Source of the DNA: an uncultured Nitrosomonadaceae bacterium
GTDB lineage: Bacteria; Chloroflexota; Anaerolineae; Anaerolineales; UBA11858
Direction of reading: 5' to 3'
Assembly: GCA_964195965.1 (NCBI GenBank)
Contig: CAXMRF010000004.1
Coordinates: 1-58,825 of the forward strand
Length of the DNA: 58,825 nt
Of the stretch, positions 1,520 to 33,317 are shown one piece after another. Each line of letters opens with the position of its first letter. Position 1 is the first letter of the stretch. A program made the position numbers and the translations under genes. The notes below the pieces were generated by a model. It was not told the DNA's origin. It saw only the letters and a program-made list of their open reading frames with translations, and did not search any database.

Positions 1520-2125
1520 TTACTTCGGACGCCTTCGTGCGGCCTTCTTCGCTTCTGCTTCCGCTTTGATCTGTAGTTCCAAAGCATAATTGACTGGCCG
1601 AATCTCAGCATAATAGGAAGCTGGTTTTAATAACCTCTCCAGTTTGTGGATATTGCTTTCCATACGCTCATAACCAGCAAGTTCATAATCATGATCCATT
1701 TTTATCGCGTCAAACGGACAATATTCCGCGCAATAGCCACAGTTCATGCATAAATCAATATCTATGGCAAATTCAGCAGGCGTCTTGATGGGTTTCCCGG
1801 TTTCCGGATCTTCCGCCCGGGTAATCCAAATACACTGGGAGGGGCACACTTTGCTGCAGATGCCGCAAGCAGTACAGCGGGGCACTTTTTCGCCATCCAC
1901 CTCGTCATAAACTAGGAAAGGCACATATCGGAAAGCCTCAGCTGTTGGCAATTTTTCTTCAGGATAGTTCACCGTGAAAATGCCTTTTGTATCCGGGGTC
2001 ATTCGCTGACGAACACCCTCTTCTGTGTAATAGCGCTTCCGACCTGCCCTGATGTCTTCTGCGTAGGTATCATAAATATGTTTAAGGGTGACACCCAATC
2101 CCTTGATAATCCCAAATCCTTTCAT
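1520..2125 (-). CDS. nuoI: NADH-quinone oxidoreductase subunit I
   Basis: Two CxxCxxCxxxCP motifs (CTACGICSKVCP, CMNCGYCAEYCP). GGAG SD upstream. Follows nuoCD. Confidence 0.9.
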   Translation of the reverse strand: MKGFGIIKGLGVTLKHIYDTYAEDIRAGRKRYYTEEGVRQRMTPDTKGIFTVNYPEEKLPTAEAFRYVPFLVYDEVDGEKVPRCTACGICSKVCPSQCIWITRAEDPETGKPIKTPAEFAIDIDLCMNCGYCAEYCPFDAIKMDHDYELAGYERMESNIHKLERLLKPASYYAEIRPVNYALELQIKAEAEAKKAARRRPK

Positions 2126-2152
2126 AAATCTCTCCAGAGGTGATGCACTGAG

Positions 2153-3904
2153 TTAACGGTCTACTTCTCCGAGCACGATATCAATGGAACCAAGGATGGC
2201 AACCAGGTCGGCCACTTTTTCTCCCAGGCTCATTTCACGCAATCCTGTCAGGTTGATAAATGATGGCGCCCGGACGTGATAACGCCAGGGGTTATCTGTT
2301 CCATCAGAAACAACATAAAATCCTAATTCACCTTTGGGCCCTTCTACACGCCCATACGCCTCGCCTTTAGGCATTCGGAACTTATAGGCTGCTTTGTTAG
2401 CCAGGAAATCTCCATCTGGTAACCCGTCAATCGCCTGCTGCAAAATGCGGATGCTCTGCCGTATTTCATCAAAACGGATCAAGAAACGATCATATACATC
2501 ACCATGGTATCGAACTGCAACATCAAAATCAAAGCGGTCATAAATACTATAAGGCTCGGCCCTGCGGATGTCATAAGGCACCCCTGAGGCCCGGAGCACA
2601 GGCCCCACGGCGGATAAACCAATGGCCTGTTCAGGAGTTAGAACACCAACACCTGCACTCCTGGAAACAACAATTTCATTTTCCACCAGGTAGCGATCCA
2701 ATTCATCGATCTGCCTGGGGAGACGATCGTAGACCAATTTACGAATATGGTCTTCCATCCCTTCCGGCAAATCACGGACCACGCCGCCAAATCGGAAGTA
2801 ATTACACATCATTCTGGATCCTGCTACAGCTTCAAAAATATCCAGGATCAGTTCCCGTTCCTTAATGGTATAAAGCGCCGGGGTGAAGTAAGCGCCCAGG
2901 TCATTTAAGAAAAAGCCGATGGCCATAAAATGGTTCAAAACTCTGGTCAGTTCTGCCATAATAACCCGGATATATTCAGCCCTTTCCGGAGGCCGGTATT
3001 TTTCACCCAAGAGTTTTTCAACAGTCAGCGCATAGCCGAAGTTGTTGCTCATGGAACAGAAATAGTCCAGTCGATCCGTATAGGGCATATTCATCGCATA
3101 GGTGTTGCGTTCGCCTATCTTCTCATGATTGCGGTGCAAATAACCCATCACCGGCTCCAGATCGACAACCGTCTCCCCTTCCAGGGTGGCTACCATCCGA
3201 AAAACACCATGCGTGGAAGGGTGCTGGGGACCCAGGTTTACCACCAATTGTTCTGTTTCAATGCCAGGGTCATCCTGCACAAGGGGCAGGGAACCTTGAA
3301 ATAGCAGCTCTTCTCCATCAGGAATCCAGGTTTCCGGATTAAATCCCTTGGGATAAGCAATGTTTTCTTGATAGGGATTCTGGTCCTCAATTTTGGAAAC
3401 CTTGCCTTCCGGCCAACGATCTTCGTAAGGTTTAAATTCACCCTCATAAAATACTTCCTGCCAGTCTTTCCTCAAAGGATGTCCTGCAAATCCTTCCCAC
3501 ATCAAAATACGTTTTAGATTGGGATGTCCTTCAAATCGAATACCCAGCAAATCCCAGGCTTCCCGTTCTTGAAAATCCGCTCCAGGAAATAAGCCTACCA
3601 GGGATGGGACTACAGGATTGGACCGAGGAAGCTGAACCTTAATTTCTAAAATTGGGCCTCCGGTGGATTTAAACAGATGGTAAACCACTTCCATTTGTTC
3701 TTCCTGCAGGTAATCCACACCGGTAACCGAGGTCAGGTGATCATAACCAAATTCATCACGTAGGGATTCCATCATGGCAAGTAAATTTTTCTGATCGACC
3801 AACAAGCCCTGGAATCCTTCCCTTTGATCCACTTCTGCCCAATCAGGAAACCGCGTTAACACTTCCTGTTCATACGATTTAATTTCTTTAATTTGTTCGT
3901 TCAT
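2153..3904 (-). CDS. nuoCD: Fused NADH-quinone oxidoreductase subunits C and D
   Basis: 583 aa. The N-terminal half has NuoC-like motifs ([26 protein letters not shown]). The C-terminal half has NuoD-like motifs ([14 protein letters not shown] ... GEVDR at the C-terminus). 4-nt overlap with the nuoB stop. Confidence 0.9.
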
Positions 3905-4527
3905 ACCTGGTTTTCCTTGTCCTGGATTTTCTTCATCAGTTCTGGATAATCTCTTACATCAATCAGGTCTGGACCAAGGATGGGAACAGGAATACCTTCG
4001 TCATCCCCCTTCTGATACCAACTGACCTCTTTGATTGATTGGTTGTCTATCTTTTCCTGAATTTTGATCAAACCGTACAGCAAGGCTTGGGGAGTGGGAG
4101 GGCATCCGGGAACATAAACATCAACTGGTATATATTTATCAACCCCCGCAATCACGTTATACCCGCGCTTAAATGGTCCGCCGCCTGATGCACAGGCACC
4201 CATGGATAAAACGTATTTAGGTTCTGGCATCTGGTTATACAATCTGACAACCTGCGGAATCATCTTTTTGGTCACTGTCCCTGAAACAATCATCAAATCA
4301 CACTGGCGGGGACTCGGACGCATAATTTCCATTCCGAACCGGGCCATATCAAATCGGGCACCAGCAGTGGCTATCATTTCAATTGCGCAGCACGCCAACC
4401 CAAAAAACATGGGCCAAACAGAATACCGCCGGCCCCAGTTATAAATTCGATCCAGGGTGGTGATGGCAACAGTCCCCTCTAATTCAGGGGGAATGCTGTA
4501 TTCAGGTTTATTCAATTCACTCGACAT
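3901..4527 (-). CDS. nuoB: NADH-quinone oxidoreductase subunit B
   Basis: [16 protein letters not shown] and GCPP motifs (cluster N2 ligands). Start placed at ATG 4527 (MSSELNK), which is preceded by a GAGGAG SD. The track ORF extends to 4608. Confidence 0.9.
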
Positions 4528-4578
4528 GAATAACGCTCCTCGTAACGAACAAGGTGGGTGTTGATTAAGTTCTTTCCT

Positions 4579-4608
4579 ATTATATTGCCCCTCACCATTC
4601 CTTGTCAA
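4579..4608 (-). promoter_or_regulatory. Sigma70-type promoter for nuoB-nuoCD-nuoI
   Basis: The minus strand reads TTGACA-18 nt-TATAAT, about 50 nt upstream of the nuoB start. Confidence 0.45.
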
Positions 4609-4616
4609 TAATTTTT

Positions 4617-4638
4617 AAAACAAAATTATTTTTGTTTT
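4617..4638. promoter_or_regulatory. Candidate operator: perfect 9-bp inverted repeat with a 4-nt spacer
   Basis: aaaacaaaa-ttat-ttttgtttt. It lies just upstream of the nuoB -35 and over the -35 region of the divergent regulator gene. Confidence 0.3.
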
Positions 4639-4665
4639 ATTACCCGGCCATGATATACTGTTTTT

Positions 4666-5271
4666 ATGCAAGTTACCCGACAAAAAATATTAGCCTACCT
4701 GAAAACCCATCCCAGCTCATCTGCAGTAGAAATCAGCCGGTTTCTGGAGATGACCCCGGCCAATATCCGGTATCACTTGGAAATTCTAGGTAATAAAGGG
4801 ACAATTCAGATAACTGGAAATCGACCAGTTATTGGCTCAGGACGGCCAATTTTGCTTTATAATCTCAGCTCTCAGGCTTTGGGTGAAAATACAATCCCCC
4901 TGCTTCGGGGGATTTTAGATGTGCTAGCAGATCACGAAGATCGCGATCTGCTTATCCAAGATATTGCAGATCAATTAGTAAACCATAAACAGGAAATTTC
5001 AAAAAACCGGATTACACGATTTAATGAAGCTGTGGTGCATCTAAATAAGAACAACTACCACGCCAGCTGGAGGGCAACCCCTGATGGGCCCCAGGTTGAA
5101 TTGAGGCACTGCCCCTATCAAAATTTAGCTCAAACCCATCCTCATCTTTGCCAGCTGGATGAGCAAATTCTATCGGCGTTATTTCAAACACCTCTGGGAT
5201 TGATTCACAAGCGTACCTTTGCAAACAATCCCTTCTCCCCCTGCATTTTTAAACCAACTGATCATCATTAA
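4666..5271 (+). CDS. HTH transcriptional regulator, SufR-like layout (N-terminal winged helix, C-terminal Cys motif)
   Basis: N-terminus QKILAYLKTHPSSSAVEISRFLEMTPANIRYHLEIL. C-terminus HCPYQNLAQTHPHLCQLDE...SPC (C-x12-C-x30-C). Divergent from nuoB. Confidence 0.7.
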   Translation: MQVTRQKILAYLKTHPSSSAVEISRFLEMTPANIRYHLEILGNKGTIQITGNRPVIGSGRPILLYNLSSQALGENTIPLLRGILDVLADHEDRDLLIQDIADQLVNHKQEISKNRITRFNEAVVHLNKNNYHASWRATPDGPQVELRHCPYQNLAQTHPHLCQLDEQILSALFQTPLGLIHKRTFANNPFSPCIFKPTDHH

Positions 5272-5298
5272 GAAACGGATTAATCCGCTGTTCTTCTC

Positions 5299-5700
5299 TT
5301 AGTGATTATGTCCCTGACCGTGCTGGTGATCTCCATGGCCATGAGCTTCACTCTCTGCACAAGATGATGCTCCCCGCAGTTCTCCATCTAAAAAGCAGGT
5401 TACTGCTTCCTGGACAGTACCACTGGCACCTGTTGCTGTATCAATTCCAAATTGGTTAAAGAATTGAATTGCCCTGCCTCCCATCCCGCCACTGAGCATT
5501 ACATCCGCGTTTTGTTCCTTGATAAATCCAGGGACCTGACCGGGTTCGTGGCCAGCAAAAAATGGATTTTCAATCACTTTAACAGATTGAATTTCTTTTC
5601 CCTCCACTTCAACAAGCCCAAAAAATGGACAGCGGCCAAAATGGTGGGCCACCAGGCTGTCTAGTCCCTGATTTGTTTCAATCGAAACTGCTATACGCAT
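5299..5700 (-). CDS. NifX/NifB-C-terminal-like (dinitrogenase FeMo-cofactor-binding fold) protein with a His-rich tail
   Basis: MRIAVS...HFGRCPFF...MLSGGMGGRAI pattern typical of the family. The C-terminus is HGHGDHQHGQGHNH. Confidence 0.75.
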   Translation of the reverse strand: MRIAVSIETNQGLDSLVAHHFGRCPFFGLVEVEGKEIQSVKVIENPFFAGHEPGQVPGFIKEQNADVMLSGGMGGRAIQFFNQFGIDTATGASGTVQEAVTCFLDGELRGASSCAESEAHGHGDHQHGQGHNH

Positions 5701-5798
5701 AATTTTTTCTCCTCATTAATATAAACTATTCCAGTTCTCAGGGTCAAAATAATCCTTTTTCCCATGATAACTGCTTTGCCTTTCCAACTCTGAGAACC

Positions 5799-6098
5799 TC
5801 AGCGGTTGATCAGGAATGTTAATTGTTCTGCGCCGACATAATTTGATATTTTTATCTCTTGGGCTGTTACGCCCGGCACTTGTGAAACAGCAACCTTAAT
5901 TTGTTGCGCTAATGATACCGCAATTGGACAAACAGGTGAAGAAGGACGAAAAGTATATTTTACCTGACCTTCTTCATTAACTTGCAAATCTTCAATTAAT
6001 CGCATCCGAATCACATCTGCCCGGGTCTCCGGGTCTATTACCAAACTCAAACGGGCCAGGATTAATGCTTCCAATTTGTCAGATTTATTTTGAGTCAT
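5799..6098 (-). CDS. DUF59/SufT-like metal-sulfur cluster assembly protein
   Basis: LSLVIDPETRADVIRMRLIEDL...PSSPVCPIA motif. Start placed at ATG 6098, which forms an ATGA overlap with the upstream gene's stop. Confidence 0.7.
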   Translation of the reverse strand: MTQNKSDKLEALILARLSLVIDPETRADVIRMRLIEDLQVNEEGQVKYTFRPSSPVCPIAVSLAQQIKVAVSQVPGVTAQEIKISNYVGAEQLTFLINR

Positions 6099-6997
6099 TT
6101 TTCCATTTCCTGCAATACTTTCATCACCTCTTCCCAGACCCAACGAATAGAAACGCTGGCAGCTGATTCTTTTTGATACTCTGTTACCGGTTTCCCCAGA
6201 ACGATTGATTCAGGGACTGCTGTATCATAAGGAATTTTCCCCACAACCCTGATTCCTTCCTGCTGGCAGAATTCTTCAATTTCATTTGTACCCTGAGGAT
6301 AGATATCCGCTTTATTAATACAAACCAGCGCCTGTACACCAAAATGTGCAGTCGTTTTAAGGACCCTATGCATATCATGCACCCCAGAGGCAGTTGGTTC
6401 CGCCACAATTAGGGCCAAATCAGCTCCTGAAACCGCAGATATCACCGGGCATCCAATGCCAGGTGGACCATCTACAAGAACAAGATCATAGGCTTCATCA
6501 AGGGCTAAAAGCCGCGCTTGCTGTTTGACAATAGTAACAAGCTTGCCTGAATTTTCCTGGGCCGGGAACAACATCGCATGGAATAAAGGACCATATTTGC
6601 TATCGGATTGATACCATTCCCCTGCCATTTCTTCTTTCATCTGAATAGCTTTTTCAGGACATTGATAAACACAGGCAGCACAACCTTCACAAGCAATCGG
6701 ATCTATGGAATAAATACCCTCTTTGATATTGACTGCGTCAAACCGGCAAACCTCCGCGCAAATGCCGCACGCAGTACAATCCTCGGGGGCTATTTCTGCT
6801 ATTGAGCCCCCCCAAAATTCCTCTCTGCTTACGGAAGAAGGGGAAAGAACCAGCTCCAAATTTGCCGCATCAACATCAGCATCTGAGATAACAGTTTTAA
6901 ATGGGGTATTTTGTTGAGAAAGTAGGTGTGCGAACGATGCAGCCACACTGGTTTTTCCAGTGCCACCTTTCCCACTGAGAATCACTAATTGTTTCAT
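6095..6997 (-). CDS. MinD/CooC-superfamily P-loop ATPase with an inserted 2x[4Fe-4S] ferredoxin domain (COG1149-type), copy 2
   Basis: Deviant Walker A SGKGGTGKTS. CTACGICAEVC and CEGCAACVYQCP motifs. DGPPGIGCPV motif. Confidence 0.8.
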   Translation of the reverse strand: MKQLVILSGKGGTGKTSVAASFAHLLSQQNTPFKTVISDADVDAANLELVLSPSSVSREEFWGGSIAEIAPEDCTACGICAEVCRFDAVNIKEGIYSIDPIACEGCAACVYQCPEKAIQMKEEMAGEWYQSDSKYGPLFHAMLFPAQENSGKLVTIVKQQARLLALDEAYDLVLVDGPPGIGCPVISAVSGADLALIVAEPTASGVHDMHRVLKTTAHFGVQALVCINKADIYPQGTNEIEEFCQQEGIRVVGKIPYDTAVPESIVLGKPVTEYQKESAASVSIRWVWEEVMKVLQEMEK

Positions 6998-7863
6998 ATT
7001 TGGTCTACACCTGGTAGAGCATCTTTAATCTTGAGATAGAGCTGCTGGAATGGAATTTCATATTCAGGGTTAATTTCTAGAAGTGTTTTTCCCCGTGCGA
7101 TTCCCTGGCCGATCTTGCGCTCAATCGGGATTCGCATCAATATATCTAATCCTTCCTCTTTGCAATACTGTTCCACACCTGAATCGCCAATGCCATCCCG
7201 GTTGATGATAACCCCCGCAGGGATTCCCAGCTCCCGGGTAACGCCATAAGCCTGCCTTAAATCATGCAATCCAAACGGGGTAGGCTCTGTGACCAGGATT
7301 GTATAATCTGTTCCCCGGAGGGACTCCACAACAGGACAGGATGTTCCTGGAGGAGAATCAATAATAACAATTTCCTCCTCATTCAAACCCTGCCACTTCT
7401 TCAGGGTCCTGATTACCGGAACGGCCATCGGTTCACCAATATCAAGTATTCCATGTCCAAATTTAATCCCCTCTGAAGATAGCCCTCCTTCTAATTGACC
7501 AATCTTGTTTGGGATTTCAGTAATGGCTTTTTCAGGACATTCCAGCGTGCAGCTGCCACAACCATGGCACATTTCTGGGAATACCAGAGTTTGTCCGCCC
7601 ACCACAACAATAGCGTGATATTGGCATACTTCCGCACAACGACCGCAGCCATTACAAAGCTCGGCGTTGACACTGGGAATCCAGATATTTACATCCTCGA
7701 ACTGATTTAATTCAGGCTTGATGAAGATATGTGAATTAGGCGCTTCTACATCACAATCTAATAACGATACTGAATACTTGGCCCTCGAGAGAACTTGAGC
7801 AAAAGCAGTTGCGATTGTTGTTTTACCTGTTCCACCTTTTCCGCTGGCGATTGAAATTTTCAT
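6994..7863 (-). CDS. MinD/CooC-superfamily P-loop ATPase with an inserted 2x[4Fe-4S] ferredoxin domain (COG1149-type), copy 1
   Basis: SGKGGTGKTT. CNGCGRCAEVC and CHGCGSCTLECP motifs. DSPPGTSCPV motif. ATG 7863 is preferred over the TTG at 7869. 4-nt overlap with copy 2. Confidence 0.8.
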   Translation of the reverse strand: MKISIASGKGGTGKTTIATAFAQVLSRAKYSVSLLDCDVEAPNSHIFIKPELNQFEDVNIWIPSVNAELCNGCGRCAEVCQYHAIVVVGGQTLVFPEMCHGCGSCTLECPEKAITEIPNKIGQLEGGLSSEGIKFGHGILDIGEPMAVPVIRTLKKWQGLNEEEIVIIDSPPGTSCPVVESLRGTDYTILVTEPTPFGLHDLRQAYGVTRELGIPAGVIINRDGIGDSGVEQYCKEEGLDILMRIPIERKIGQGIARGKTLLEINPEYEIPFQQLYLKIKDALPGVDQI

Positions 7864-7875
7864 AAGCAATCGCTC

Positions 7876-8235
7876 TTAATGATGCATTTCCGGGCCGGTT
7901 GCGGATTTAACTTCTTCCAGGGTTCCCGAATTGAACCGGTTCAACAGATCCTCAGGGGAGCCTGCGTCGGCAATGAAGGCCCGGATACCTGCGGCTTCCA
8001 GTGTCTTATACGCGTTAGGGCCATAACGCCCTGTAATCGTTGCCTCGATCTCGGATTTTGCGAGAAACTCGACTGCCTGTGGTCCTGCACCTCCACGAGC
8101 GCTCAAAGCAGGGTTAGGTTTAGATTCCCATGCTCCTGTATCCGTATCAATAAATATAAAATACTGGCAGCGGCCAAATCGGGGGCTGAATTCTGTATTG
8201 AATTTGCCATCGGGTGAAGATACTGCAATTTTCAT
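7876..8235 (-). CDS. NifX/NifB-C-terminal-like protein
   Basis: MKIAVSS...RFGRCQYFIFID...ITGRYGPNAY pattern of the family. Confidence 0.75.
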   Translation of the reverse strand: MKIAVSSPDGKFNTEFSPRFGRCQYFIFIDTDTGAWESKPNPALSARGGAGPQAVEFLAKSEIEATITGRYGPNAYKTLEAAGIRAFIADAGSPEDLLNRFNSGTLEEVKSATGPEMHH

Positions 8236-8298
8236 GTTGATTCCTTATCTTTAAATATTCCAGAAACGACTGGAAAGTTATTTAATATATTAACTAAA

Positions 8299-8520
8299 CT
8301 ATTCTCTGTTTAAAGCGGTCCCGCAGGTGGGGCACTTTATTTCATAACAAGGTTTTCCTGCCTTGTGGATTTCCTTATGATCACATGTAGGACAGACGCA
8401 ATTACCACCTGATCTACCTCCACCTAAATTTCGTCCCCGGCCTCCCCTCCTCCCACGGCCAGCCCCGCGCCCAAAACCAGGTTCCTGTTCAGAAACACTT
8501 TTTTGATTATCCTCAGTCAT
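8299..8520 (-). CDS. Small RGG-rich protein with a C-terminal 4-Cys zinc-ribbon-like motif
   Basis: GFGRGAGRGRRGGRGRNLGGGRSGG followed by CVCPTCDHKEIHKAGKPCYEIKCPTCG. 8-nt overlap with the PadR gene stop. Confidence 0.55.
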   Translation of the reverse strand: MTEDNQKSVSEQEPGFGRGAGRGRRGGRGRNLGGGRSGGNCVCPTCDHKEIHKAGKPCYEIKCPTCGTALNRE

Positions 8521-8917
8521 GGTTAATCTCCTTCTTTTCTTTCTTATTTGATTTGAATTTTTGGATCAGTTGATTGATCTGTTCTGCCACAGTACCCAGG
8601 GATGCCATCCACTCTTCCAGGCAAATTAATCCTACATCTGTGATCCTATAAACCCGACGTTTGGGTCCTTTACTATCATCATCCCAATACGATTCAATCA
8701 AACCTGTTGCTTCCATATCTCTTAAGTCACGGTAGACAATACTGGAATCCAGGCGTCCAGAATCAAACCCAAATGAACCCAGCCGATCTAATAAATCATA
8801 ACCATGAGATTCATTTTCAGCTAGCATTAAAAGCAAACTAGGACGAAGGATTAAACGCATTCCCCGTCTCTGCCTTTGGCGGCAAGAACCGGGTTTTCCC
8901 TGTCTACGTCCTGGCAT
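8513..8917 (-). CDS. PadR-family transcriptional regulator with an Arg-rich N-terminal extension
   Basis: LLLMLAENESHGYDLLDRL...RRVYRITDVG winged-helix pattern. Start placed at ATG 8917, preceded by an AGGAGG SD. The track ORF starts at 8938 with no SD. Confidence 0.75.
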   Translation of the reverse strand: MPGRRQGKPGSCRQRQRRGMRLILRPSLLLMLAENESHGYDLLDRLGSFGFDSGRLDSSIVYRDLRDMEATGLIESYWDDDSKGPKRRVYRITDVGLICLEEWMASLGTVAEQINQLIQKFKSNKKEKKEINHD

Positions 8918-8957
8918 ATCTACCTCCTGGACTTCCATTTAATTAGAAGTTTGAGGT

Positions 8958-8986
8958 AGTATAACCAACTAACTGCATTTTGTCAA
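8958..8986 (-). promoter_or_regulatory. Sigma70-type promoter heading the PadR/NifX-like/MinD-ferredoxin module
   Basis: The minus strand reads TTGACA-17 nt-TATACT. Confidence 0.5.
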
Positions 8987-9024
8987 TAGATGTTTGTTCT
9001 ATAGATATTTTTCACCAGATCCTG

Positions 9025-10638
9025 CTAATTATCCCCCGTTGGCAGGCTAGGCATGGATGGACCTTCTTTTCCCATCAGATCAGCCAGGACTGATAGTGCA
9101 GCAGTTCTGTCATCCCAAGGATATTCTGTTTTACCAAAACACATAGATTGTTCGTGGCCTTTCCCAAAAATCATCACCACATCCCCCGGGTCTGCCTGTC
9201 CTAAAGCAAACCGGATTGCACTTCCCCTGTCTGGCATGCGCCAGAATGTTTTATCCTCAATACCGCCTTTGGATAACACACCCTGGGCCATCTCTTCCAG
9301 AATGCCATCCAGGGATTCTGTTCTCGGATCTTCAGCGGTTAAGACCGTCAGGTCTGCCATTTCCGCAGATATACCTGCCATCAGGCGTCTTTTTTCTCGA
9401 TCCCTTAACCCCGCAGAACCAAAAACGGTAATCACTCGCTTTGCGGTTAACGACCTGGCTGCGGAGATTGCCACCTGCAAGGCGTTGGGAGTATGTGCAA
9501 AATCCACAATGACCAGAAATTTCTGACCCAGATCAAGACGCTGCATTCTACCCGGGATACCCTCCAGATTAAGAATCCCTTGTTGGACAACTTCCCAACT
9601 TAATCCCAATCCTTCAATACAAGCACTAGCGGCGGCCAGGCAATTGGAGACGTTGTACTCTCCAAGCAAGGAAGACTTAATTGGAATCCGTTCTCCAGCC
9701 CGATGGATAACAAATCTAATTCCATCCGGTTCCTGCTGAAAGTCACCCGCCTTAAATAACGGCTGATCATTTAGGCCTTTAACTTCATTTGCAGGAGAAT
9801 TTTCTTCCTTACCATAATCGACCCAGGCTACACCAATCTCAGATATTATATTTAATAAAGGGAGGAATGACTGATCATCCCGATTCAATATTGCCAGTTT
9901 CTGCTTCAGGCCAGTTTTCTCTTTTGAGTTGGCAACTATTCTGAGCAATTCGGCCTTGGCATCCAGGTAACCCTGAAAATCACCATGGTAATCCAGGTGT
10001 TCGTGGGAAATATTAGTAATCACACCAATATCAAATTCAACAGCAGCGACACGTTTTTGCGTCAAACCGTGGGAAGTTGTTTCCAGAACTACATGGGTGA
10101 TACCAGCCTTAACCATCTCCGCCAGATAACTCTGAACATCCATGGCCTCCGGTGTGGTAACGTGAAAACCTGTATCAAGGATTCGATCTCCAATCACTGC
10201 ATTAACAGTGGAAATCAAACCCGCTTTTAATCCAGCAGTCAATAATATTTGATGGAGTAGATTTACCGTTGTGGTCTTCCCGTCCGTGCCTGTAACCCCG
10301 ATCACAATTAATTGCCTGGCTGGATATTCATGCCAGGCGGCTGCCAGGTGAGAGAGGGCTTCCCGGGTGTCCTCTACCTGGAAATAAGGTATGGGGAGGT
10401 CCTGATACCCCTGCCAGGGGTTTGATCCCACCACCGCAGCTGCGCCTTGCGAAACCGCAGCATCGATAAATTCATGGCCATCTACCTGGGTACCTGGAAT
10501 TGCGAGGTATAAATAATCCGCCTGGATTTTCCGCGAATCAATGGCAATACCTCTAATAGGAAAGGTATTTTCAGGTAATGGATTTTTGGTAGTTACTTCC
10601 TGAAACAATTCTCCAAGATCCTTATTTCCTGCTGCCAC
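9025..10638 (-). CDS. murE: UDP-N-acetylmuramoyl-L-alanyl-D-glutamate-diamino acid ligase
   Basis: GVTGTDGKTTT P-loop, DYHG, and GSAGLRDREKRRLM. The motif EDPR (9322..9333) sits where DAP-type MurE has DNPR. Confidence 0.85.
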   Translation of the reverse strand: MAAGNKDLGELFQEVTTKNPLPENTFPIRGIAIDSRKIQADYLYLAIPGTQVDGHEFIDAAVSQGAAAVVGSNPWQGYQDLPIPYFQVEDTREALSHLAAAWHEYPARQLIVIGVTGTDGKTTTVNLLHQILLTAGLKAGLISTVNAVIGDRILDTGFHVTTPEAMDVQSYLAEMVKAGITHVVLETTSHGLTQKRVAAVEFDIGVITNISHEHLDYHGDFQGYLDAKAELLRIVANSKEKTGLKQKLAILNRDDQSFLPLLNIISEIGVAWVDYGKEENSPANEVKGLNDQPLFKAGDFQQEPDGIRFVIHRAGERIPIKSSLLGEYNVSNCLAAASACIEGLGLSWEVVQQGILNLEGIPGRMQRLDLGQKFLVIVDFAHTPNALQVAISAARSLTAKRVITVFGSAGLRDREKRRLMAGISAEMADLTVLTAEDPRTESLDGILEEMAQGVLSKGGIEDKTFWRMPDRGSAIRFALGQADPGDVVMIFGKGHEQSMCFGKTEYPWDDRTAALSVLADLMGKEGPSMPSLPTGDN

Positions 10639-10669
10639 TTTGTGTTTCCTCCATAATCGTATCCTGATG

Positions 10670-10705
10670 AAAAAAACGCCCTGATTTAGTAATCCGGGCG
10701 TTTTT
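10670..10705 (-). terminator. Rho-independent terminator after the Fo operon
   Basis: 12-bp stem with one mismatch (aacgccctgatt / aatccgggcgtt) and a 4-nt loop. On the minus strand it is followed by a run of 7 U. Confidence 0.55.
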
Positions 10706-10732
10706 ATTGTACACTAGAAAACCGCAGTGCAA

Positions 10733-11470
10733 TTAGTTGAACAAAGATCGCATACCTGATAACTGAGAAAAAACTGAATGATCATACATGGTGTCATCAA
10801 TTCGAACTGTCAATCCACCTAAAAGGTCTGTATCCACCTTAAAAGTAACTTCAGGCTTACCAGAAGTTCGTTCTTGGATATCTTTTTCAATCACCTTCAT
10901 TTCTTTGTTGCTCAGCGGCAACGCGCTGGTTACAACTGCTGTTTTTCCTTCAAATTTATCTCCCTCAAGGACCATAACCTTGCCATCCTTGACATTGGAG
11001 AAAAACTCATCCACCAAATCTTTTTGACGGGATTCATCCAGGGCAGTGCCCAGTAATTTTTGGGTTGCTGCGATAGCCAAAACTGCAACCTGGTCGCGCA
11101 CACCTTTCAGCAGATGTCCTTCTTCTTCCTTGGCATCTTCCTGCGCTTTTATAATTATCTTCTTGGCTTCTTCCGAGGCATCAGTTTTTATTGACTCTAC
11201 CCGGTCATGAGCTTGAGCCACAATCTTTTCCGCCTCTTTTTTAGCCTCTACCAATACAGCTTCCCGTTCCAGGCCAATCTTTTCCCGCTCTTCTGCAGCA
11301 GCTTCAGTATCTTCGACCTGTTTCTGCAGCATCGCCTGACGTTCGTCCAGGCGTTTCCTGGCAGGTTTCCAGAGTAATACGGTCAGCAGACCGAACATCA
11401 CCAGGAAATTTACAATTTGGGAAATTAAAAAAGGGCCATTGATTCCCATGGCTGATAATGCGTCACCCAC
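10733..11470 (-). CDS. atpF: ATP synthase Fo subunit b fused to a delta (OSCP)-like C-terminal domain
   Basis: GTG start with an AAGGAGGA SD. Residues 1-157 form a TM helix plus a charged coiled coil, as in subunit b. Residues about 175-245 (TAVVTSALPLSNKEMKVIEKDIQERTSGKPEVTFKVDTDLLGGLTVRIDDTMYDHSVFSQLSGM) align by eye with the E. coli delta C-terminus. Confidence 0.8.
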   Translation of the reverse strand: MGDALSAMGINGPFLISQIVNFLVMFGLLTVLLWKPARKRLDERQAMLQKQVEDTEAAAEEREKIGLEREAVLVEAKKEAEKIVAQAHDRVESIKTDASEEAKKIIIKAQEDAKEEEGHLLKGVRDQVAVLAIAATQKLLGTALDESRQKDLVDEFFSNVKDGKVMVLEGDKFEGKTAVVTSALPLSNKEMKVIEKDIQERTSGKPEVTFKVDTDLLGGLTVRIDDTMYDHSVFSQLSGMRSLFN

Positions 11471-11480
11471 AGTATCCTCC

Positions 11481-11753
<273 letters not shown>

Positions 11754-11766
11754 TCAACCTTATTGA

Positions 11767-12669
11767 TTAATGATGCTGAGTTGCCATCTGATAGAAAATC
11801 AGGGACAACATTGAAAAAATCAGTGCCTGGATGGCACCTACAAATAATTCTAAAGCGATAAACACATCCACAACCAGGAATGCTGTCAGGAAACTGATCA
11901 CCATCAAAAGCACTTCTCCGGCAAAAACGTTACCAAATAACCGGAAGCCAAACGAAAGCACTTTAATAAATTCGCTTATGAGTTCAAGGATTCCGGCAAA
12001 TCCGTTAGAAAATGAGAGAACAGGTTTTAGCGCCCCACTATCGGGGTCCGCGCTGAAGTTGAAAAATTTCTTTAGATATTTTCTACCTTGAAATTTAAAT
12101 CCGTAATATTGGGCCATTACCTGAGTAATTATTGCCAGCCCAAGGGTAGTGCTGAGATCAGCAGTTGGGGATCGGAAAATTGGAATCATGGCAGCCTGGC
12201 CGTGATGTACTCCCTCAATCAAAATTGATCCCATACCCGGCAGTAAACCTGACCAATTGGAAAACAGGATAAAAAAGAAAAACGATCCAATTATGGGGAA
12301 AAACAAGGTTGCCTTTTCTTTGCCAACCGTTGTCTCGACAAATGAAAACACACCTTCATAAATCGCATCCACAGTAATTAGGAATCTGCTTTCTTTTCCA
12401 ATCCGCTCTGCTTTTTTGACTGCCCGATGATATGAAAAAGCAATCAATATTAAAAACAACGCTGTTAACATTGCGGTTGGCAATGTATTAGGGATGCCTT
12501 TTTCAAATCCCGGGATAGGTAAATGCCAGGGAATGAGTTCAGCCGCAAGACTGATTGTCGGGAGTTCTTTTCCCGGCATAATCAGGCCATATCCTGTAAG
12601 TGCCAGCGCTGCCAAGCCAATTAGAAGTTTGACTAAACAACCACTATTTTTTTTCTTTTCCTGTTCCAT
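11767..12669 (-). CDS. atpB: ATP synthase Fo subunit a
   Basis: Polytopic membrane protein with the SFGFRLFGNVFAGEVLL motif (essential Arg). Confidence 0.85.
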   Translation of the reverse strand: MEQEKKKNSGCLVKLLIGLAALALTGYGLIMPGKELPTISLAAELIPWHLPIPGFEKGIPNTLPTAMLTALFLILIAFSYHRAVKKAERIGKESRFLITVDAIYEGVFSFVETTVGKEKATLFFPIIGSFFFFILFSNWSGLLPGMGSILIEGVHHGQAAMIPIFRSPTADLSTTLGLAIITQVMAQYYGFKFQGRKYLKKFFNFSADPDSGALKPVLSFSNGFAGILELISEFIKVLSFGFRLFGNVFAGEVLLMVISFLTAFLVVDVFIALELFVGAIQALIFSMLSLIFYQMATQHH

Positions 12670-12675
12670 ACGGAT

Positions 12676-12948
12676 TTAATCTTCCTTTTTCTTGTCTTCA
12701 AGACGTTTATGAACAGTAGTTTTTACCCAACGAAAAACAAGGAAAGCTCCACCAGCAAATCCAATCATGGAGAGAAAAACTGTAAATAATATGATGGTAT
12801 TAAACTGGCGATCCAGAAATAATCCTGCAGCCATTCCCAGTAATACCGGGAAGGCAATTAAAAAACCTGCCTGACCTGCAACAGACATTACCCAGATCCG
12901 ATCTTGCCAAACTGTTCCCTGTTTAGTCTCTTCAGTGCCAGAATTCAA
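12676..12948 (-). CDS. AtpZ/AtpI-like small membrane protein
   Basis: 90 aa with two TM helices and a GLFLDRQFNT motif. First gene of the Fo operon. Confidence 0.5.
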   Translation of the reverse strand: MNSGTEETKQGTVWQDRIWVMSVAGQAGFLIAFPVLLGMAAGLFLDRQFNTIILFTVFLSMIGFAGGAFLVFRWVKTTVHKRLEDKKKED

Positions 12949-12982
12949 TTAATACTCCTCAAGAAAAACATGTGCCTGCTGT

Positions 12983-13011
12983 ATTCTACTCACAAGCCAA
13001 AAAGCTGTCAA
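12983..13011 (-). promoter_or_regulatory. Sigma70-type promoter of the Fo operon in the nuoN-atpZ spacer
   Basis: The minus strand reads TTGACA-17 nt-TAGAAT. A 6-bp hairpin (ctgtca/tgacag) overlaps the -35. Confidence 0.45.
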
Positions 13012-13076
13012 CCTGACAGGTTTTCCAAATATTTTTTTATCCAGTTAAGCTATACAATCCAAACTGTTTTAATTGC

Positions 13077-14546: not shown

Positions 14547-14572
14547 GGTTATTGCCTCTCTTTATATCGCGT

Positions 14573-16117: not shown

Positions 16118-16141
16118 GTTCTCCTCGTAAATCGTTTTGGT

Positions 16142-18331: not shown

Positions 18332-18342
18332 TTTCCTCTCAC

Positions 18343-18654
18343 TTATTCTTTCAATAAATCGATCTCTTCCACAACAACAGTATCGCGATTGCGGTAGATC
18401 GCTATCACCAAGGCTAACCCTACTGCAACCTCAGCGGCTGCAACAGTGAAGACAAAAAGTGCAAAAACTTGTCCGGTCAAACGACCCGGATCCATGAATC
18501 GCCAAAAAGCTACCAGATTAATATTTACCGCGTTGAGCATCAATTCAATGCCCATCAAGATCCCGATCGCATTCCTGCGGGATAAAACACCGTAAATTCC
18601 GATGCTGAATAAAGCAGCAGCAAGGACTAAATACCAATTAAGAGGAATACTCAT
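18343..18654 (-). CDS. nuoK: NADH-quinone oxidoreductase subunit K
   Basis: 103-aa three-TM protein. 4-nt overlap with nuoJ. Confidence 0.9.
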
Positions 18655-19163
18655 TCTGCACTCCTTGAATCTTGTTCTCTTTCCCTTCCAATCACAATTG
18701 ATCCTACCAGGGCTGCTAAAAGCAGCACTGAGGCGATTTCAAAGGGAACCACATAGGTAGTTAATAATTCCTGGCCCAACAAGGCAATAGGATCATCAGG
18801 CACTGCCCCCTGCACCACCGGCCAATTAGCGCTGTACACTATCCAGCCCAGAACCCCAAACAAAATAAGGGCGCCCAGCGCGGACCAGATCCATTGTGCG
18901 TTTCGCTGCTCAATATCTTTGCTCATTATCCTGCGGGTGAGCATGATAGCAAATACGATCAAAATCGCAATGGCACCGATATAAACCAGGACCTGGACAA
19001 CCGCGATAAAGGGCGCTTCCAACAGCACATAAATACTGGCAATACCCACAAATGCCAGCACAAGGTAAAAAGCGCTGTGGAGAATATTTTTATTGGTCAC
19101 TACTGCGACTGCTGCACCAAGGGTGACAATACTGACCGCTGCAAAAACAATTACGGGTACCAT
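18651..19163 (-). CDS. nuoJ: NADH-quinone oxidoreductase subunit J
   Basis: 170-aa membrane protein positioned between nuoH and nuoK. Confidence 0.85.
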
Positions 19164-19184
19164 AAATCTATCCTTTTACACCAA

Positions 19185-20387: not shown

Positions 20388-20420
20388 GAATAAATTCTCC
20401 TGCATCCCATAGGCATGGAT

Positions 20421-23181: not shown

Positions 23182-23195
23182 TCAATCAACCTTTT

Positions 23196-33244: not shown

Positions 33245-33317
33245 TGGACCCAGTGGGATTCGAACCCACGACCTCCTCAATGCCATTGAGGCGCGCTCCC
33301 AACTGCGCCATGGGCCC
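33245..33317 (-). tRNA. tRNA-Ala (anticodon GGC)
   Basis: Folded by hand into a cloverleaf. Acceptor GGGCCCA/TGGGTCC with G3:U70. Anticodon loop AUGGCAU. T-loop GGGTTCGAATCCC. No encoded CCA. Confidence 0.9.

Follow-up and report, generated by a model that had tools for sequence, protein, structure and literature searches.

Gene content of the locus

Seven co-oriented, closely packed open reading frames (ORFs) lie on the minus strand at positions 5299..8986 of the window, by which is meant the whole 58,825-nucleotide stretch of DNA, from an anaerobic member of the Anaerolineales (Chloroflexota), that was analysed. A first-pass annotation had joined them in a single unit; checking of the ORF coordinates located all seven as described, and Pfam searches confirmed every one of its domain calls that could be tested. 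In order of transcription, the features are:

8958..8986, minus strand: sigma70-type promoter, TTGACA-17-TATACT, 11/12 matches to consensus, with a conserved upstream motif
8513..8938, minus strand: PadR-family transcriptional regulator, the operon's first gene (PF03551, E 2.9e-14)
8299..8520, minus strand: 73-aa RGG small protein ('CysM'), of a family without a Pfam or NCBIfam profile
7876..8235, minus strand: NifX-like-1, a tail-less PF02579 protein of the ORP (Orp8)/MTH1175/TM1290 type (PF02579, E 2.3e-19)
6994..7863, minus strand: ATPase-1, a MinD/Mrp-class P-loop ATPase (PF10609, E 1.9e-19; PF01656, E 7.1e-17; two Fer4 stretches)
6095..6997, minus strand: ATPase-2, a paralogue built like ATPase-1 and 33% identical to it (PF01656, E 1e-14; PF10609, E 2.4e-14; two Fer4 stretches)
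5799..6098, minus strand: DUF59/FeS_assembly_P protein of 99 aa, its ATG overlapping the ATPase-2 stop (PF01883, E 2.6e-13)
5299..5700, minus strand: NifX-like-2, a PF02579 protein of the TM1816/PH0822/MrpORP C-terminal-domain type (PF02579, E 7.3e-19)

The gene overlaps reported earlier are present: 8 nt between the PadR and RGG genes, and ATGA junctions between ATPase-1 and ATPase-2 and between ATPase-2 and DUF59. Two starts call for comment. That of PadR is most likely the second ATG, at 8917 (134 aa, MPGRRQG...), which is favoured by an AGGAGG ribosome-binding site in front of it and by orthologues beginning MPGYRRG; that of ATPase-1 is the ATG at 7863 (289 aa, as in its homologues) rather than the TTG at 7869. 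The flanks are also as first described, with nuoB, a fused nuoCD, nuoI and a SufR-like regulator on one side, and nuoA-H-J-K-L-M-N, Fo genes and murE on the other. The scan of 20 other window ORFs, the largest all included, agreed that nitrogenase, hydrogenase and CODH genes are absent from them.

The promoter was correctly called, at 8986..8958. Its -35 box and flanking bases are kept in three relatives (loci L001, L007 and L008), as part of a conserved motif in the promoter region, ATCTATAGA...CTATTGACAAAxTGCAG, a candidate operator for PadR. In front of NifX-like-2, at 5747..5718, there is another promoter-like site, which shows no conservation in relatives and is probably a chance match; promoter-like matches in the region are in no excess (8 observed, 9.3 expected in shuffled sequence).

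The encoded proteins

The two PF02579 proteins belong to different branches of their family. NifX-like-1 matches the solved structures of MTH1175 (E 2.5e-17), TM1290 (E 2e-16) and Desulfovibrio gigas ORP (2WFB, E 3.5e-10); it is 33% identical to the ORP of Desulfonatronovibrio (E 1.5e-15), and does not match the second PF02579 protein there at E<=1e-3. NifX-like-2, which has a His-rich tail and the motif HHFGRC, matches TM1816 (E 3.2e-27, the His-rich tails aligning too), PH0822 (E 4.5e-26) and positions 265-365 of the MrpORP model (E 2.6e-19); it is 38.5% identical to the PF02579 gene product encoded after the Desulfonatronovibrio ATPase pair.

The ATPases sort in the same manner. ATPase-1 is closer to the first Desulfonatronovibrio ATPase (39% identity, 213 bits) than to the second (117 bits); ATPase-2 is closer to the second (42% identity, 256 bits) than to the first (134 bits). 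ATPase-1 has a deviant Walker A motif (GKGGTGKT), an inserted ferredoxin domain with two CxxCxxCxxxC motifs, and a Cys seven residues after the Walker-B Asp; this last feature is matched by 121 of 177 surveyed ATPases. Cys132 of NifH, a switch II cluster ligand, has the same spacing. In structure comparison, the predicted P-loop core of ATPase-1 resembles MinD (best, E 3e-12), Cfd1, ATPase-type HypB, ApbC, NifH and BchL; the fold is one of the MinD/Cfd1/ApbC/HypB/NifH class. The DUF59 protein has one Cys only, within SSPVCP, and scores 44.7 bits on TIGR02945 (SUF_assoc), under the cut-off of 143.4 bits.

The 73-aa protein had been described as RGG-rich with two CxxC pairs; it has more than these. 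An Arg/Gly segment, disordered and cationic (residues 14-39, net charge +7), precedes a domain of the pattern C-x-C-P-x-C-x5-H-x5-C-x4-C-P-x-C, with six Cys and one His. All seven ligand-type residues (C41, C43, C46, H52, C58, C63 and C66) are invariant among 30 family sequences. Structure prediction gave pLDDT 80-85 for the Cys domain and a disordered N-terminal part; a structure search with the Cys domain gave no significant match (best Foldseek E 0.37), and profile searches gave no Pfam or NCBIfam match. The protein nevertheless belongs to a widespread family, which comprises about 650 representative clusters (E<=1e-3) and escapes the Pfam and NCBIfam models. Of 80 species, 35 have a member next to the ATPase pair; in 13 of 37 cases no more than 60 bp separate its gene from ATPase-1. 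Elsewhere, members occur as fusions with PF02579, Fer4 or PF04060 Fe-S domains. In the orp locus of Desulfonatronovibrio, the gene immediately upstream of ORP encodes a protein with a weak likeness to PF02579 and a similar Cys motif at its C-terminus.

Taken together, the sequence comparisons identify the seven-gene unit as a probable Chloroflexota variant of the 'orange protein' (ORP) cassette of anaerobes.

Distribution and neighbours

Relatives of the cassette are encoded on at least 595 genome stretches, the best 80 of which come from Chloroflexota, Desulfobacterota, Omnitrophota, Planctomycetota, NC10, Bacillota and Archaea. The two ATPase genes neighbour each other in at least 65 of the 80 species loci, a PF02579 gene is near them in 70, and a DUF59 gene lies within 4 kb of the pair in 22. 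A PadR gene stands ahead of the cassette in 14 of the 40 Chloroflexota loci, versus none of 40 loci of other phyla. Unbiased clustering of the genes around the cassette in 83 loci returned, as recurrent neighbours, DUF5320 (24), radical SAM (20), DUF59 (19), IscU/NifU_N (16), Fur (10), DUF364 (10) and CGGC (9); no recurring respiratory complex or single client enzyme emerged from it.

How the cassette might work

One way to understand this combination of genes is as a self-contained apparatus, powered by ATP, in which inorganic Fe-S clusters, or related metal-sulfide ones, are held and handed on to serve the cell in general rather than one neighbouring enzyme. We regard this account as moderately probable. 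The first-pass annotation had proposed a dedicated metallocluster assembly or delivery system, and that much gains support from the ORP orthology, from co-purification in D. vulgaris and from the Fe-S-type neighbours. Gene content, orthology, motifs and distribution come from the present analysis; complex formation, Fe-S binding and in vitro transfer come from the Desulfovibrio literature; the steps of the mechanism are what we infer from both.

That is, ATPase-1 and ATPase-2 would form an ATP-dependent sandwich heterodimer; the case is made from the signature-lysine Walker A, the invariable pairing of the ATPases and the finding, already published, that Orp3 and Orp4 co-purify. The inserted ferredoxin domain of each would carry two [4Fe-4S] clusters. 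The Cys at Walker-B Asp+7, present in each, may by its spacing correspond to the switch II ligand of NifH, so that nucleotide state could couple to redox or cluster chemistry. Tail-less NifX-like-1 would hold an anionic inorganic cluster non-covalently, as ORP (Mo-Cu-S) and IssA (thioferrate) do; the small protein might provide, in trans, both a metal-binding knuckle domain and a disordered, positively charged Arg/Gly stretch resembling the tail of IssA. NifX-like-2, with its His-rich tail and its likeness to the Fe-S-binding C-terminal domain of MrpORP, and the DUF59 protein would act as carriers towards apo-proteins. PadR would autoregulate the operon from the conserved promoter region.

Alternative readings

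A second perspective, suggested by the first-pass annotation, supposes that complex I is the client: NuoB and NuoI of a NuoEFG-less complex I would receive their N2, N6a and N6b [4Fe-4S] clusters from the cassette, which would act in the manner of mitochondrial Ind1/NUBPL. ATPase-1 does score above the threshold of the NUBPL-type Pfam model PF10609, and in the window, as in all relatives of at least 75% ATPase-1 identity with long enough contigs, the cassette has nuoA-N/Fo/murE on one side and nuoB-CD-I on the other. Within this clade nuoB/CD/I adjoin it in L001, L007, L087 and L089, in the last collinearly and with the intervening regulator absent; L008 keeps nuoLMN-Fo-murE upstream, its contig stopping before the downstream side. 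At 70% identity or less, however, the linkage is gone (L003, L088, L004), as it is in all other phyla; L021 retains only a loose nuoMN-murE proximity, with three unrelated genes intervening and nuoB/CD/I absent; and of the 46 species loci whose downstream sequence extends for 5 kb or more, just one has NuoB/CD. In the window itself, the cassette and the nuoB unit are separate transcription units with the opposite-strand SufR-like gene between them, and nuoB has its own promoter (12/12 consensus). Many other lineages, Archaea included, have the cassette in unrelated gene contexts, and the ATPases depart from the Mrp/Ind1 architecture: the ferredoxin insert is present, and the C-terminal half has no visible CxxC outside it. 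The earlier annotation had named, as telling against its suggestion, a nuo linkage peculiar to this genome together with a different metalloenzyme as constant companion; adjacency to nuoB/CD/I is indeed confined to a narrow clade, but the 83 loci revealed no alternative metalloenzyme that recurs as a client. Because the cassette adjoins complex I genes only within its own small clade, where synteny is expected from common descent alone, the proposal is unsupported, and it is very unlikely. The stable flanks in that clade, and the collinearity in L089, mean that a clade-specific client relationship may exist.

The other alternatives look beyond complex I. A cell-division or positioning system, in which the MinD-like pair serves septum placement or morphogenesis and the metal centres are redox sensors, has been hypothesised for D. 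vulgaris ORP: loss of OrpR there leads to morphological defects, and a division role was proposed for the Orp proteins (PMC8359166, PMC3897727), and MrpORP is found at one cell pole (PMC6345978). The phenotype is that of a regulator mutant, though, and may be indirect; the authors call the role unclear (PMC8359166). MinD is the best structural match of the ATPase core, but the archaeal MinD model gives ATPase-1 and ATPase-2 only 60 and 85 bits (cut-off 202 bits); murE, a cell-wall gene, lies directly upstream of the cassette, but in the window's clade alone. The recurrent neighbours include IscU, Fur, DUF59 and radical SAM genes but no minC/minE or other division gene, and the small protein is fused to metal-cluster domains; we consider a division role unlikely. 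It is quite unlikely, too, that the cassette buffers or detoxifies thiometallates (Mo/W/Cu sulfides), the ORP-type protein binding spontaneous [S2MoS2CuS2MoS2]3--type clusters of sulfidic cells and the ATPases loading or unloading these. A positively charged Arg/Gly segment would be suited to anionic metal sulfides of any kind, NifX-like-1 is related to ORP, and at one locus (L003) a molybdoenzyme of the xanthine dehydrogenase family lies 3 kb downstream; but MTH1175 and TM1290 are closer to NifX-like-1 than ORP is, Mo, W and Cu transport or cofactor genes do not recur near the cassette as iron-linked Fur and IscU do, and, to our knowledge, the physiological standing of the ORP Mo-Cu cluster was never established. 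An ATP-driven donor of low-potential electrons, finally, would make the heterodimer a counterpart of NifH, BchL or an activase, with a radical SAM enzyme, for example, as partner and the PF02579 proteins as substrate carriers: redox catalysis, not trafficking. The ferredoxin-type clusters, two per ATPase, the frequent Asp+7 Cys, the NifH and BchL matches and the radical SAM genes of 20 loci are consistent with it. Yet the window operon has no radical SAM gene or obvious acceptor, and the likeness to NifH is limited to the common P-loop fold, with MinD, Cfd1 and HypB ranking above it; this alternative seems rather improbable, and its mechanism is compatible with the cluster-handling account.

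Comparison with known systems

The first-pass annotation held that such clusters had no experimentally assigned function. That statement is outdated: the ORP complex has been under study since 2011 (PMC8359166), although in the literature on ORP-type cassettes no experiment defines a physiological substrate or client. D. gigas ORP was isolated holding a non-covalent Mo-Cu-S cluster, as cited in PMC6345978. In D. vulgaris, Orp3, Orp4 and Orp8 co-purify as an Fe-S-carrying complex, to which MrpORP passes clusters in vitro; the PF02579 domain of MrpORP binds a 3Fe-4S cluster (PMC6345978). Rising redox potential turns the orp operons off (PMC8359166).

Position by position, NifX-like-1 corresponds to ORP, ATPase-1 and ATPase-2 to the Orp3/Orp4-type pair, and NifX-like-2 to the trailing PF02579 gene of the Desulfovibrio-type cluster. 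MrpORP, the sole ORP component with demonstrated Fe-S transfer, is missing from the window operon. Desulfovibrionales clusters use the sigma54 activator OrpR, whereas the window cassette has PadR; this regulator, the DUF59 protein and the RGG zinc-ribbon protein are its lineage-specific parts. For the last, the likeness to IssA is one of composition and of domain fusions, without homology of the tail. In IssA itself, a PF02579 domain, for which MTH1175 served as the model, is combined with a cationic tail rich in Gly and Arg. This tail binds anionic thioferrate, and ferredoxin can be reconstituted in vitro by IssA (PMC5524996).

The seven-gene operon

The module set out in the first-pass annotation is real and was rightly dissected. 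Seven co-oriented minus-strand ORFs lie densely packed at 5299..8986, encoding in order a PadR regulator, a small RGG protein of 73 aa, a NifX-like protein (NifX1), two ATPases, a DUF59 protein and a second NifX-like protein (NifX2). The overlaps are as claimed (8 nt between PadR and the small protein; ATGA both between ATPase-1 and ATPase-2 and between ATPase-2 and DUF59), and the gaps measure 12 nt (NifX1/ATPase-1), 63 nt (small protein/NifX1) and 98 nt (DUF59/NifX2). Every domain call was confirmed by Pfam profiles, the small RGG protein being left without a match.

Pfam matches of the operon's proteins
PadR: PF03551, E 2.9e-14; 53.2 bits, cut-off 27 (winged-helix domain present)
NifX1: PF02579, E 2.3e-19
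ATPase-1: PF10609, E 1.9e-19, and PF01656, E 7.1e-17; two Fer4 stretches
ATPase-2: PF01656, E 1e-14, and PF10609, E 2.4e-14; two Fer4 stretches
DUF59: PF01883, E 2.6e-13
NifX2: PF02579, E 7.3e-19

The following signals and genes bear on expression of the operon or were met in the same searches.

8986..8958 (-), operon promoter, TTGACA-17-TATACT
5718..5747 (-), TTGACC-18-TATATT in the 98-bp gap before NifX2, rejected as an internal promoter
33245..33317 (-), tRNA gene (Rfam)
33369..33441 (-), tRNA gene (Rfam)

The operon promoter was found where the annotation had placed it. Promoter-like matches are no commoner in the cassette region than in shuffled sequence; conservation of the -35 box and its flanking bases in three related genomes argues that this one is real. 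A conserved region there, ATCTATAGA...CTATTGACA, is a candidate PadR operator. PadR itself most likely begins at ATG 8917, and the start of ATPase-1 is corrected to ATG 7863. The hexamers of the internal candidate are not conserved in three close relatives (loci L001, L007 and L008), and it is probably a chance match. Rfam found no structured RNA in or near the operon; its only matches in the window are the two tRNA genes, some 25 kb away. At a similar distance (~25 kb from the cassette) lies a DUF2202 gene, 33555..34313 (-); in the more distant locus L004 a DUF2202 gene (2032..3000) is found 7 kb upstream of the cassette.

The flanks, too, are as claimed: on one side nuoA-H-J-K-L-M-N, an atpI-like gene, atpB, a fused b/delta subunit and murE, and on the other a SufR-like regulator on the opposite strand, followed by nuoB, fused nuoCD and nuoI. 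No nitrogenase, hydrogenase or CODH gene was seen when 20 other ORFs of the window, including all the largest, were scanned; these have housekeeping functions. By the names of its homologues, the organism belongs to the Anaerolineales, phylum Chloroflexota. Upstream of nuo, at 22015..24203 (-), are two adjacent FemAB-family genes for peptidoglycan interpeptide-bridge transferases; taken with murE, they suggest that this Anaerolineales member has a branched peptidoglycan.

An ORP-type core

The identity of the cassette was first indicated by NCBIfam matches to a model named 'MrpORP', a name that led to the ORP (orange protein) complex known from Desulfovibrio. That complex comprises two paralogous ATPases, Orp3 and Orp4, which bear two [4Fe-4S] ferredoxin motifs apiece; the 'orange protein' itself, Orp8, of PF02579; Orp9 or MrpORP, in which a PF02579 domain is fused to an Mrp/NBP35 ATPase; and Orp5. 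The genes form two operons controlled by sigma54 and OrpR (PMC6345978, PMC8359166). Orp3, Orp4 and Orp8 have been co-purified, and in vitro their complex takes Fe-S clusters from MrpORP (PMC6345978). Knowledge of a physical Orp3-Orp4-Orp8 Fe-S complex and of a Mo-Cu-S cluster on ORP comes only from experiments with Desulfovibrio proteins (PMC6345978), and in D. vulgaris the C-terminal PF02579 domain of MrpORP binds a 3Fe-4S cluster (PMC6345978). The earlier statement that such clusters have no experimentally assigned function is out of date, the ORP complex having been described (PMC6345978), although the physiological role is still called unclear (PMC8359166). No paper from after 2021 on ORP ATPase function was found in the library searched.

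A reference orp locus (L006), that of Desulfonatronovibrio hydrogenovorans, was reached from the D. gigas ORP sequence (PDB 2WFB). The locus runs sigma54 activator, 212-aa protein, ORP, ATPase, ATPase, PF02579 protein, and BLASTP orthology between it and the window is position-specific and one-to-one.

BLASTP relationships between the window's cassette and the Desulfonatronovibrio orp locus
NifX1: ORP, 33% identity, E 1.5e-15 (the second PF02579 protein of the locus is not matched at E<=1e-3)
ATPase-1: 213 bits with the first ATPase, 117 bits with the second
ATPase-2: 256 bits with the second ATPase, 134 bits with the first
NifX2: trailing PF02579 gene, 38.5% identity, E 1.7e-16

This orthology, together with the structure matches, argues that the core, as judged by sequence, is an ORP-type cassette. 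It has an ORP/Orp8-type PF02579 protein (NifX1 against D. gigas ORP 2WFB, E 3.5e-10) and adjacent paralogous MinD-like ATPases with two [4Fe-4S] ferredoxin motifs each. No Mrp-type gene lies within the operon; a stand-alone Mrp-like gene precedes the cassette in L004. In place of a sigma54 promoter and OrpR the operon has a sigma70-type promoter and PadR; among surveyed loci, OrpR-like genes occur near the cassette in 6/40 from outside the Chloroflexota and in 0/40 from within it. Upstream of the Desulfonatronovibrio locus by ~4 kb are Fo genes (2367..4087: atpI-like, atpI, atpB, atpE); this proximity recalls that of Fo and cassette in the window but is probably coincidence, as in the survey Fo genes otherwise lie near the cassette only in the window's clade and in L064.

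Both ATPases carry the signature-lysine Walker A (GKGGTGKT), a motif of ATPases that dimerise around ATP, and they are 33% identical to one another. A Walker A of this type is present in 177/177 survey ATPases and both CxxCxxCxxxC motifs in 149/177; a motif with Cys at Walker-B Asp+7 is present in 121/177, and in NifH the switch II cluster ligand, Cys132, has this spacing. By structure, the predicted ATPase core matches MinD (E 3e-12), FlhG/FleN, Cfd1, ATPase-type HypB, ApbC and NifH. The ferredoxin insert is absent from the top structural matches listed (213-346 residues, of the MinD, FlhG, Cfd1, HypB, ApbC and NifH families), and matches of the ATPase-1 sequence to solved structures span only the insert or parts of the P-loop domain. 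Likeness to ATPase-type HypB is that of the shared P-loop core only; no CODH, hydrogenase or urease gene, of the kind that would link the pair to CooC, HypB or UreG, occurs in the scanned ORFs of the window or among recurrent neighbours. Scores fall below the MinD thresholds (TIGR01969, 60.1 and 84.6 bits against 201.75; TIGR01968, 34.6 and 71.8 against 212.9), and neither minC nor minE is found among the scanned ORFs or recurrent neighbour families. Against the NCBIfam MrpORP model the ATPases score 53-66 bits, with a cut-off of 450.

Among solved structures, NifX1 matches MTH1175 (1EO1, E 2.5e-17) and TM1290 (1RDU, E 2e-16) besides ORP, and NifX2 matches TM1816 (1T3V/1O13, E 3.2e-27), with its His-rich tail aligned too, and PH0822 (2YX6, E 4.5e-26). 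Depositors named TM1816, PH0822, TM1290 and MTH1175 'hypothetical protein', 'conserved hypothetical protein' or 'probable NifB protein', so these matches establish fold, not function. Within the MrpORP model of NCBIfam, NifX2 aligns with the C-terminal part (E 2.6e-19; 69.7 bits, cut-off 450). The best structural-database relatives of both proteins come from outside nif clusters, and no nif gene was seen among the scanned ORFs of the window or the recurrent neighbours. The DUF59 protein scores 50.5 bits against the PF01883 cut-off of 23.5 and has Cys57 in SSPVCP; it is no SufT/SUF_assoc equivalog (44.7 bits against 143.4 and 24.4 against 202.6, NCBIfam), and no suf genes are adjacent to it.

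A small protein family of the cassette

The small RGG protein belongs to no Pfam or NCBIfam family; relaxing Pfam to E<=10 gave noise-level zinc-ribbon matches. Word-indexed search returned a single relative, 93% identical, and an exhaustive HMMER scan was needed: among 1.84 billion representative proteins it found 650 clusters at E<=1e-3. The family is defined by the motif C-x-C-P-x-C-x5-H-x5-C-x4-C-P-x-C after a disordered Arg/Gly-rich N-terminal segment, and is here called RG/Cys6His. Where two CxxC pairs had first been read, the protein has six invariant Cys and one invariant His: in 30 sequences the only invariant residues besides Met1 are C41, C43, C46, H52, C58, C63 and C66. Residues 14-39 comprise 7 Arg, 13 Gly and 0 acidic residues, with a net charge of +7. 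In the AlphaFold2 model the Cys domain reaches pLDDT 80-85, and the Arg/Gly segment comes out disordered. Foldseek of this model returned nothing significant (best E 0.37), with generic Cys4 knuckle domains as top matches, so a Cys4 knuckle-like fold class is weakly indicated.

Gene position, domain fusions and slot equivalence tie the family to the cassette. An RG/Cys6His gene is found no more than 4 kb from ATPase-1, and on its strand, in 35/80 surveyed species (20/40 Chloroflexota, 15/40 other phyla); 13/37 such genes lie within 60 bp of ATPase-1. The RG and Cys6His module is fused to PF02579 domains in four family members (P0282, P0301, P0351 and P0245), to a ferredoxin in P0253 and to a PF04060 Fe-S domain in P0257; in Desulfonatronovibrio it is the C-terminus of a weakly PF02579-like protein, encoded upstream of ORP. 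The extreme fusion, P0245 (985 aa), has two PDZ domains, two PF02579 domains and five tandem Cys6His motifs, and multi-repeat proteins of 770-1500 aa are also among the family matches. As to the slot, in two relatives with 70% ATPase identity (L003 and L088) the small-protein gene is replaced by a canonical DUF5320 (PF17253) gene, in the order PadR-DUF5320-NifX1-ATPases. The two families share an Arg/Gly-rich N-terminus, with a MPxGDGTGP-type start, like that of DUF5320, in 19/37 surveyed RG/Cys6His members, and differ in that a Cys6His domain takes the place of the C-terminal coiled coil of DUF5320. PF17253 does not match the window's small protein at E<=10; two family members (P0256 and P0257) have N-terminal PF17253 matches below threshold. 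The RG/Cys6His family is a newly recognised regular component of ORP cassettes, undetected by any Pfam or NCBIfam model.

Position beside complex I

The cassette lies within a split complex I locus.

1520..20777 (-), split complex I locus: nuoA-H-J-K-L-M-N, Fo, murE, cassette, nuoB, fused nuoCD, nuoI
4579..4608 (-), nuoB promoter, TTGACA-18-TATAAT, 12/12 sigma70 consensus
4666..5271 (+), SufR-like winged-helix gene, divergent from nuoB, with a C-terminal C-x12-C motif

The Fo genes comprise atpI-like, atpB, atpE and the fused b/delta subunit, with no F1 genes beside them, and nuoE, nuoF and nuoG are not found in the window. The true nuoB start is ATG 4527 (208 aa, as in L001), the apparent TTG start being the -35 hexamer. 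Cassette and nuoB-CD-I are separate transcription units with the opposite-strand SufR-like gene between them. That regulator scores 30.4 bits against the TIGR02702 cut-off of 178.8; L001, L007 and L087 have its gene at the corresponding place, L089 lacks it, and it was not found near the cassette elsewhere. It may couple nuoB-CD-I expression to Fe-S status.

The split nuo arrangement is kept in relatives with at least 75% ATPase identity: nuoLMN, Fo, murE, the cassette and nuoB-CD-I are all present in L001, L007, L087 and L089 (the last lacking the SufR-like gene, its cassette collinear with nuoB-CD-I), and L008 keeps the upstream half before its contig ends. At 68-70% identity (L003, L088 and L004) the PadR/NifX/ATPase/ATPase/DUF59/NifX unit persists among unrelated genes. 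NuoB/CD adjoins the cassette in 1/46 survey loci with at least 5 kb of downstream sequence, and NuoLMN with murE lies near it in 2/37 with at least 8 kb upstream. One of these two (L021), considered as a deeper linkage, was rejected because the proximity is loose: its murE is 4.3 kb off, with three unrelated genes between (two on the opposite strand), and no nuoB/CD/I follows. Since the linkage is lost outside the clade, it is clade-level synteny, explicable by common descent alone, and the position of the cassette beside complex I carries little functional weight.

Neighbours across genomes

The survey covered the 80 species loci most similar to ATPase-1 (48-79% identity), the best of at least 595 genome stretches encoding ATPase relatives, found by way of two peptide patterns; genes were called by tblastn, regular expressions and a crude ORF filter, and many contigs are short. 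Neighbours were taken without prior labels: 1393 ORFs from 83 loci were clustered and representatives identified by profile.

Gene families recurring near the cassette, by number of loci
Metallo-beta-lactamase-fold protein: 27/83
DUF5320: 24/83
Radical SAM: 20/83
DUF59: 19/83
IscU/NifU_N: 16/83
ARMT1/DUF89: 12/83
Zn_ribbon_8: 12/83
PadR: 11/83
DUF134: 11/83
DUF364: 10/83
Methyltransferase: 10/83
Fur: 10/83
CGGC: 9/83

Among the 83 loci there is no recurrent respiratory complex, hydrogenase or nitrogenase, nor any other single large metalloenzyme that recurs. It had been asked at the outset whether the module always travels with a different metalloenzyme and adjoins nuo only in this genome; the nuo linkage is indeed confined to the clade, and no other recurrent client enzyme appeared. 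The recurring iron regulator, Fe-S scaffold and DUF59 carrier point instead to general iron-sulfur handling.

The ARMT1/DUF89 'damage-control phosphatase' (for example L021, 12225..13070) and the metallo-beta-lactamase-fold gene are among the commonest neighbours. After the cassette of L003, a stretch at 12599..18670 encodes DUF364/DUF4213, two more DUF59 proteins (13359 and 18371), a KaiC-like protein, an ATPase; a YggS-like protein, of a family seen in 8/83 loci; and a xanthine dehydrogenase-family molybdoenzyme of 970 aa.

A possible role

Among gene clusters of anaerobes that await a role, ORP-type cassettes are some of the most widespread, and the Desulfovibrio work leaves both cell division and Fe-S biology as possible fields of ORP function. 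From Desulfobacterota to Chloroflexota the Orp3/Orp4/ORP core shows one-to-one conservation, and Archaea have related cassettes; the genes that recur as its partners relate to iron and Fe-S clusters (IscU, Fur, DUF59, radical SAM), and neither division genes nor any one enzyme do so. The likeness of the RG/Cys6His family to the IssA tail, and its fusions to PF02579 in some genomes, link the ORP system to IssA of Pyrococcus furiosus (PF2025), and so to a concrete, testable biochemical hypothesis. IssA binds anionic thioferrate through a cationic tail and can rebuild a ferredoxin cluster (PMC5524996).

From the co-purification of Orp3, Orp4 and Orp8, their cluster uptake and the IssA precedent we infer how the cassette probably works; what has been observed is its genes, their orthology and motifs, and where they occur. 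The two ATPases would pair as a redox-active heterodimer, driven by ATP, and act on an inorganic Fe-S or metal-sulfide species bound to NifX1, with a cationic segment provided in trans by the small protein; NifX2 and DUF59 would hand clusters to apo-proteins, and PadR would control the operon. A bolder reading goes beyond this scheme: the stored material could be thioferrate-like or a related anionic metal-sulfide species; the tail-less MTH1175/ORP-type PF02579 scaffold could hold it as a mineral-like cluster; the RG/Cys6His protein could serve as the cationic tail, with a metal site of its own; and the NifH-like Fe-S heterodimer could turn the store into [4Fe-4S] clusters, passed to DUF59 and NifX2. 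In the window's clade, a complex I without NuoEFG may, in addition, have come to draw its NuoB and NuoI clusters preferentially from the cassette.

That ORP-type cassettes are a general anaerobe pathway that stores and mobilises inorganic iron sulfide, in this split-IssA design and with the clade-specific nuo supply included, is a tentative reading and, taken whole, an unlikely one. A function in cell division or positioning, as proposed for D. vulgaris, draws on the phenotype of a regulator mutant, on MrpORP being located at a cell pole and on the adjacency of murE, which is clade-restricted; as the MinD score thresholds failed and division genes are absent among the neighbours, it appears quite unlikely. 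Thiometallate buffering has in its favour the Mo-Cu cluster found on ORP of D. gigas; genes for Mo, W or Cu, however, do not recur around the cassette, and we consider it very doubtful. An ATP-driven reductase of the NifH kind would be compatible with the scheme inferred above; put forward by itself it is equally doubtful. Most improbable is an assembly factor specific to complex I, the client proposed in the first-pass annotation: what favours it is synteny within one clade, which is gone at 68-70% identity. The label 'complex I assembly factor', tempting and unsupported, came from local synteny alone and is removed.

Relation to known systems

The cassette ATPases share the P-loop class and deviant Walker A of Mrp, Nbp35, ApbC, Cfd1 and Ind1 (NUBPL), with PF10609 above threshold; Cfd1 and ApbC are among the best structural matches, and a DUF59 gene adjoins the ATPase genes. 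DUF59-Mrp fusions are known. Unlike the Mrp family, the cassette ATPases are an obligate paralogous pair and carry a di-ferredoxin insert of ~55 residues after the first strand-helix unit; no bridging C-terminal CxxC of the Mrp type is visible outside the insert, and a single Cys in D-x-PPG-x-x-C-P stands instead.

In IssA an MTH1175-type PF02579/IPR003731 domain is joined to a Gly/Arg-rich segment, disordered and cationic, for which binding of an anionic inorganic Fe-S polymer has been proposed (PMC5524996). Compared by description, the cassette resembles a split version: NifX1 is the MTH1175-type domain, and the RG segment (+7) resides on a separate protein. Neither NifX protein has the IssA architecture, NifX1 (119 aa) being tail-less and the tail of NifX2 His-rich rather than cationic Gly/Arg. 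The small protein differs from IssA in that its RG segment is followed by a Cys6His domain, which IssA lacks, in having no aromatic/proline-rich region and in being encoded with two ATPases. The fused PF02579, RG and Cys6His proteins fit, by description only, the criteria of the 'IssX' clade (PMC5524996), which we offer as a lead.

The closest counterparts are the orp clusters of D. vulgaris Hildenborough, D. alaskensis and D. gigas. As in these, an extra PF02579 protein follows the ATPase pair, and the carriers are lineages typical of anoxic habitats, as judged by record titles. The window has one operon, with a sigma70-type promoter and PadR, whereas Desulfovibrio has two divergent operons under sigma54, OrpR and IHF; DUF59 is added and MrpORP missing; and the RG/Cys6His module is a separate 73-aa protein, not a C-terminal domain as in Desulfonatronovibrio. 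With PadR, DUF59 and a stand-alone RG/Cys6His protein, and with neither MrpORP nor sigma54 control, the cassette is a variant of the ORP system rather than a new kind of system.
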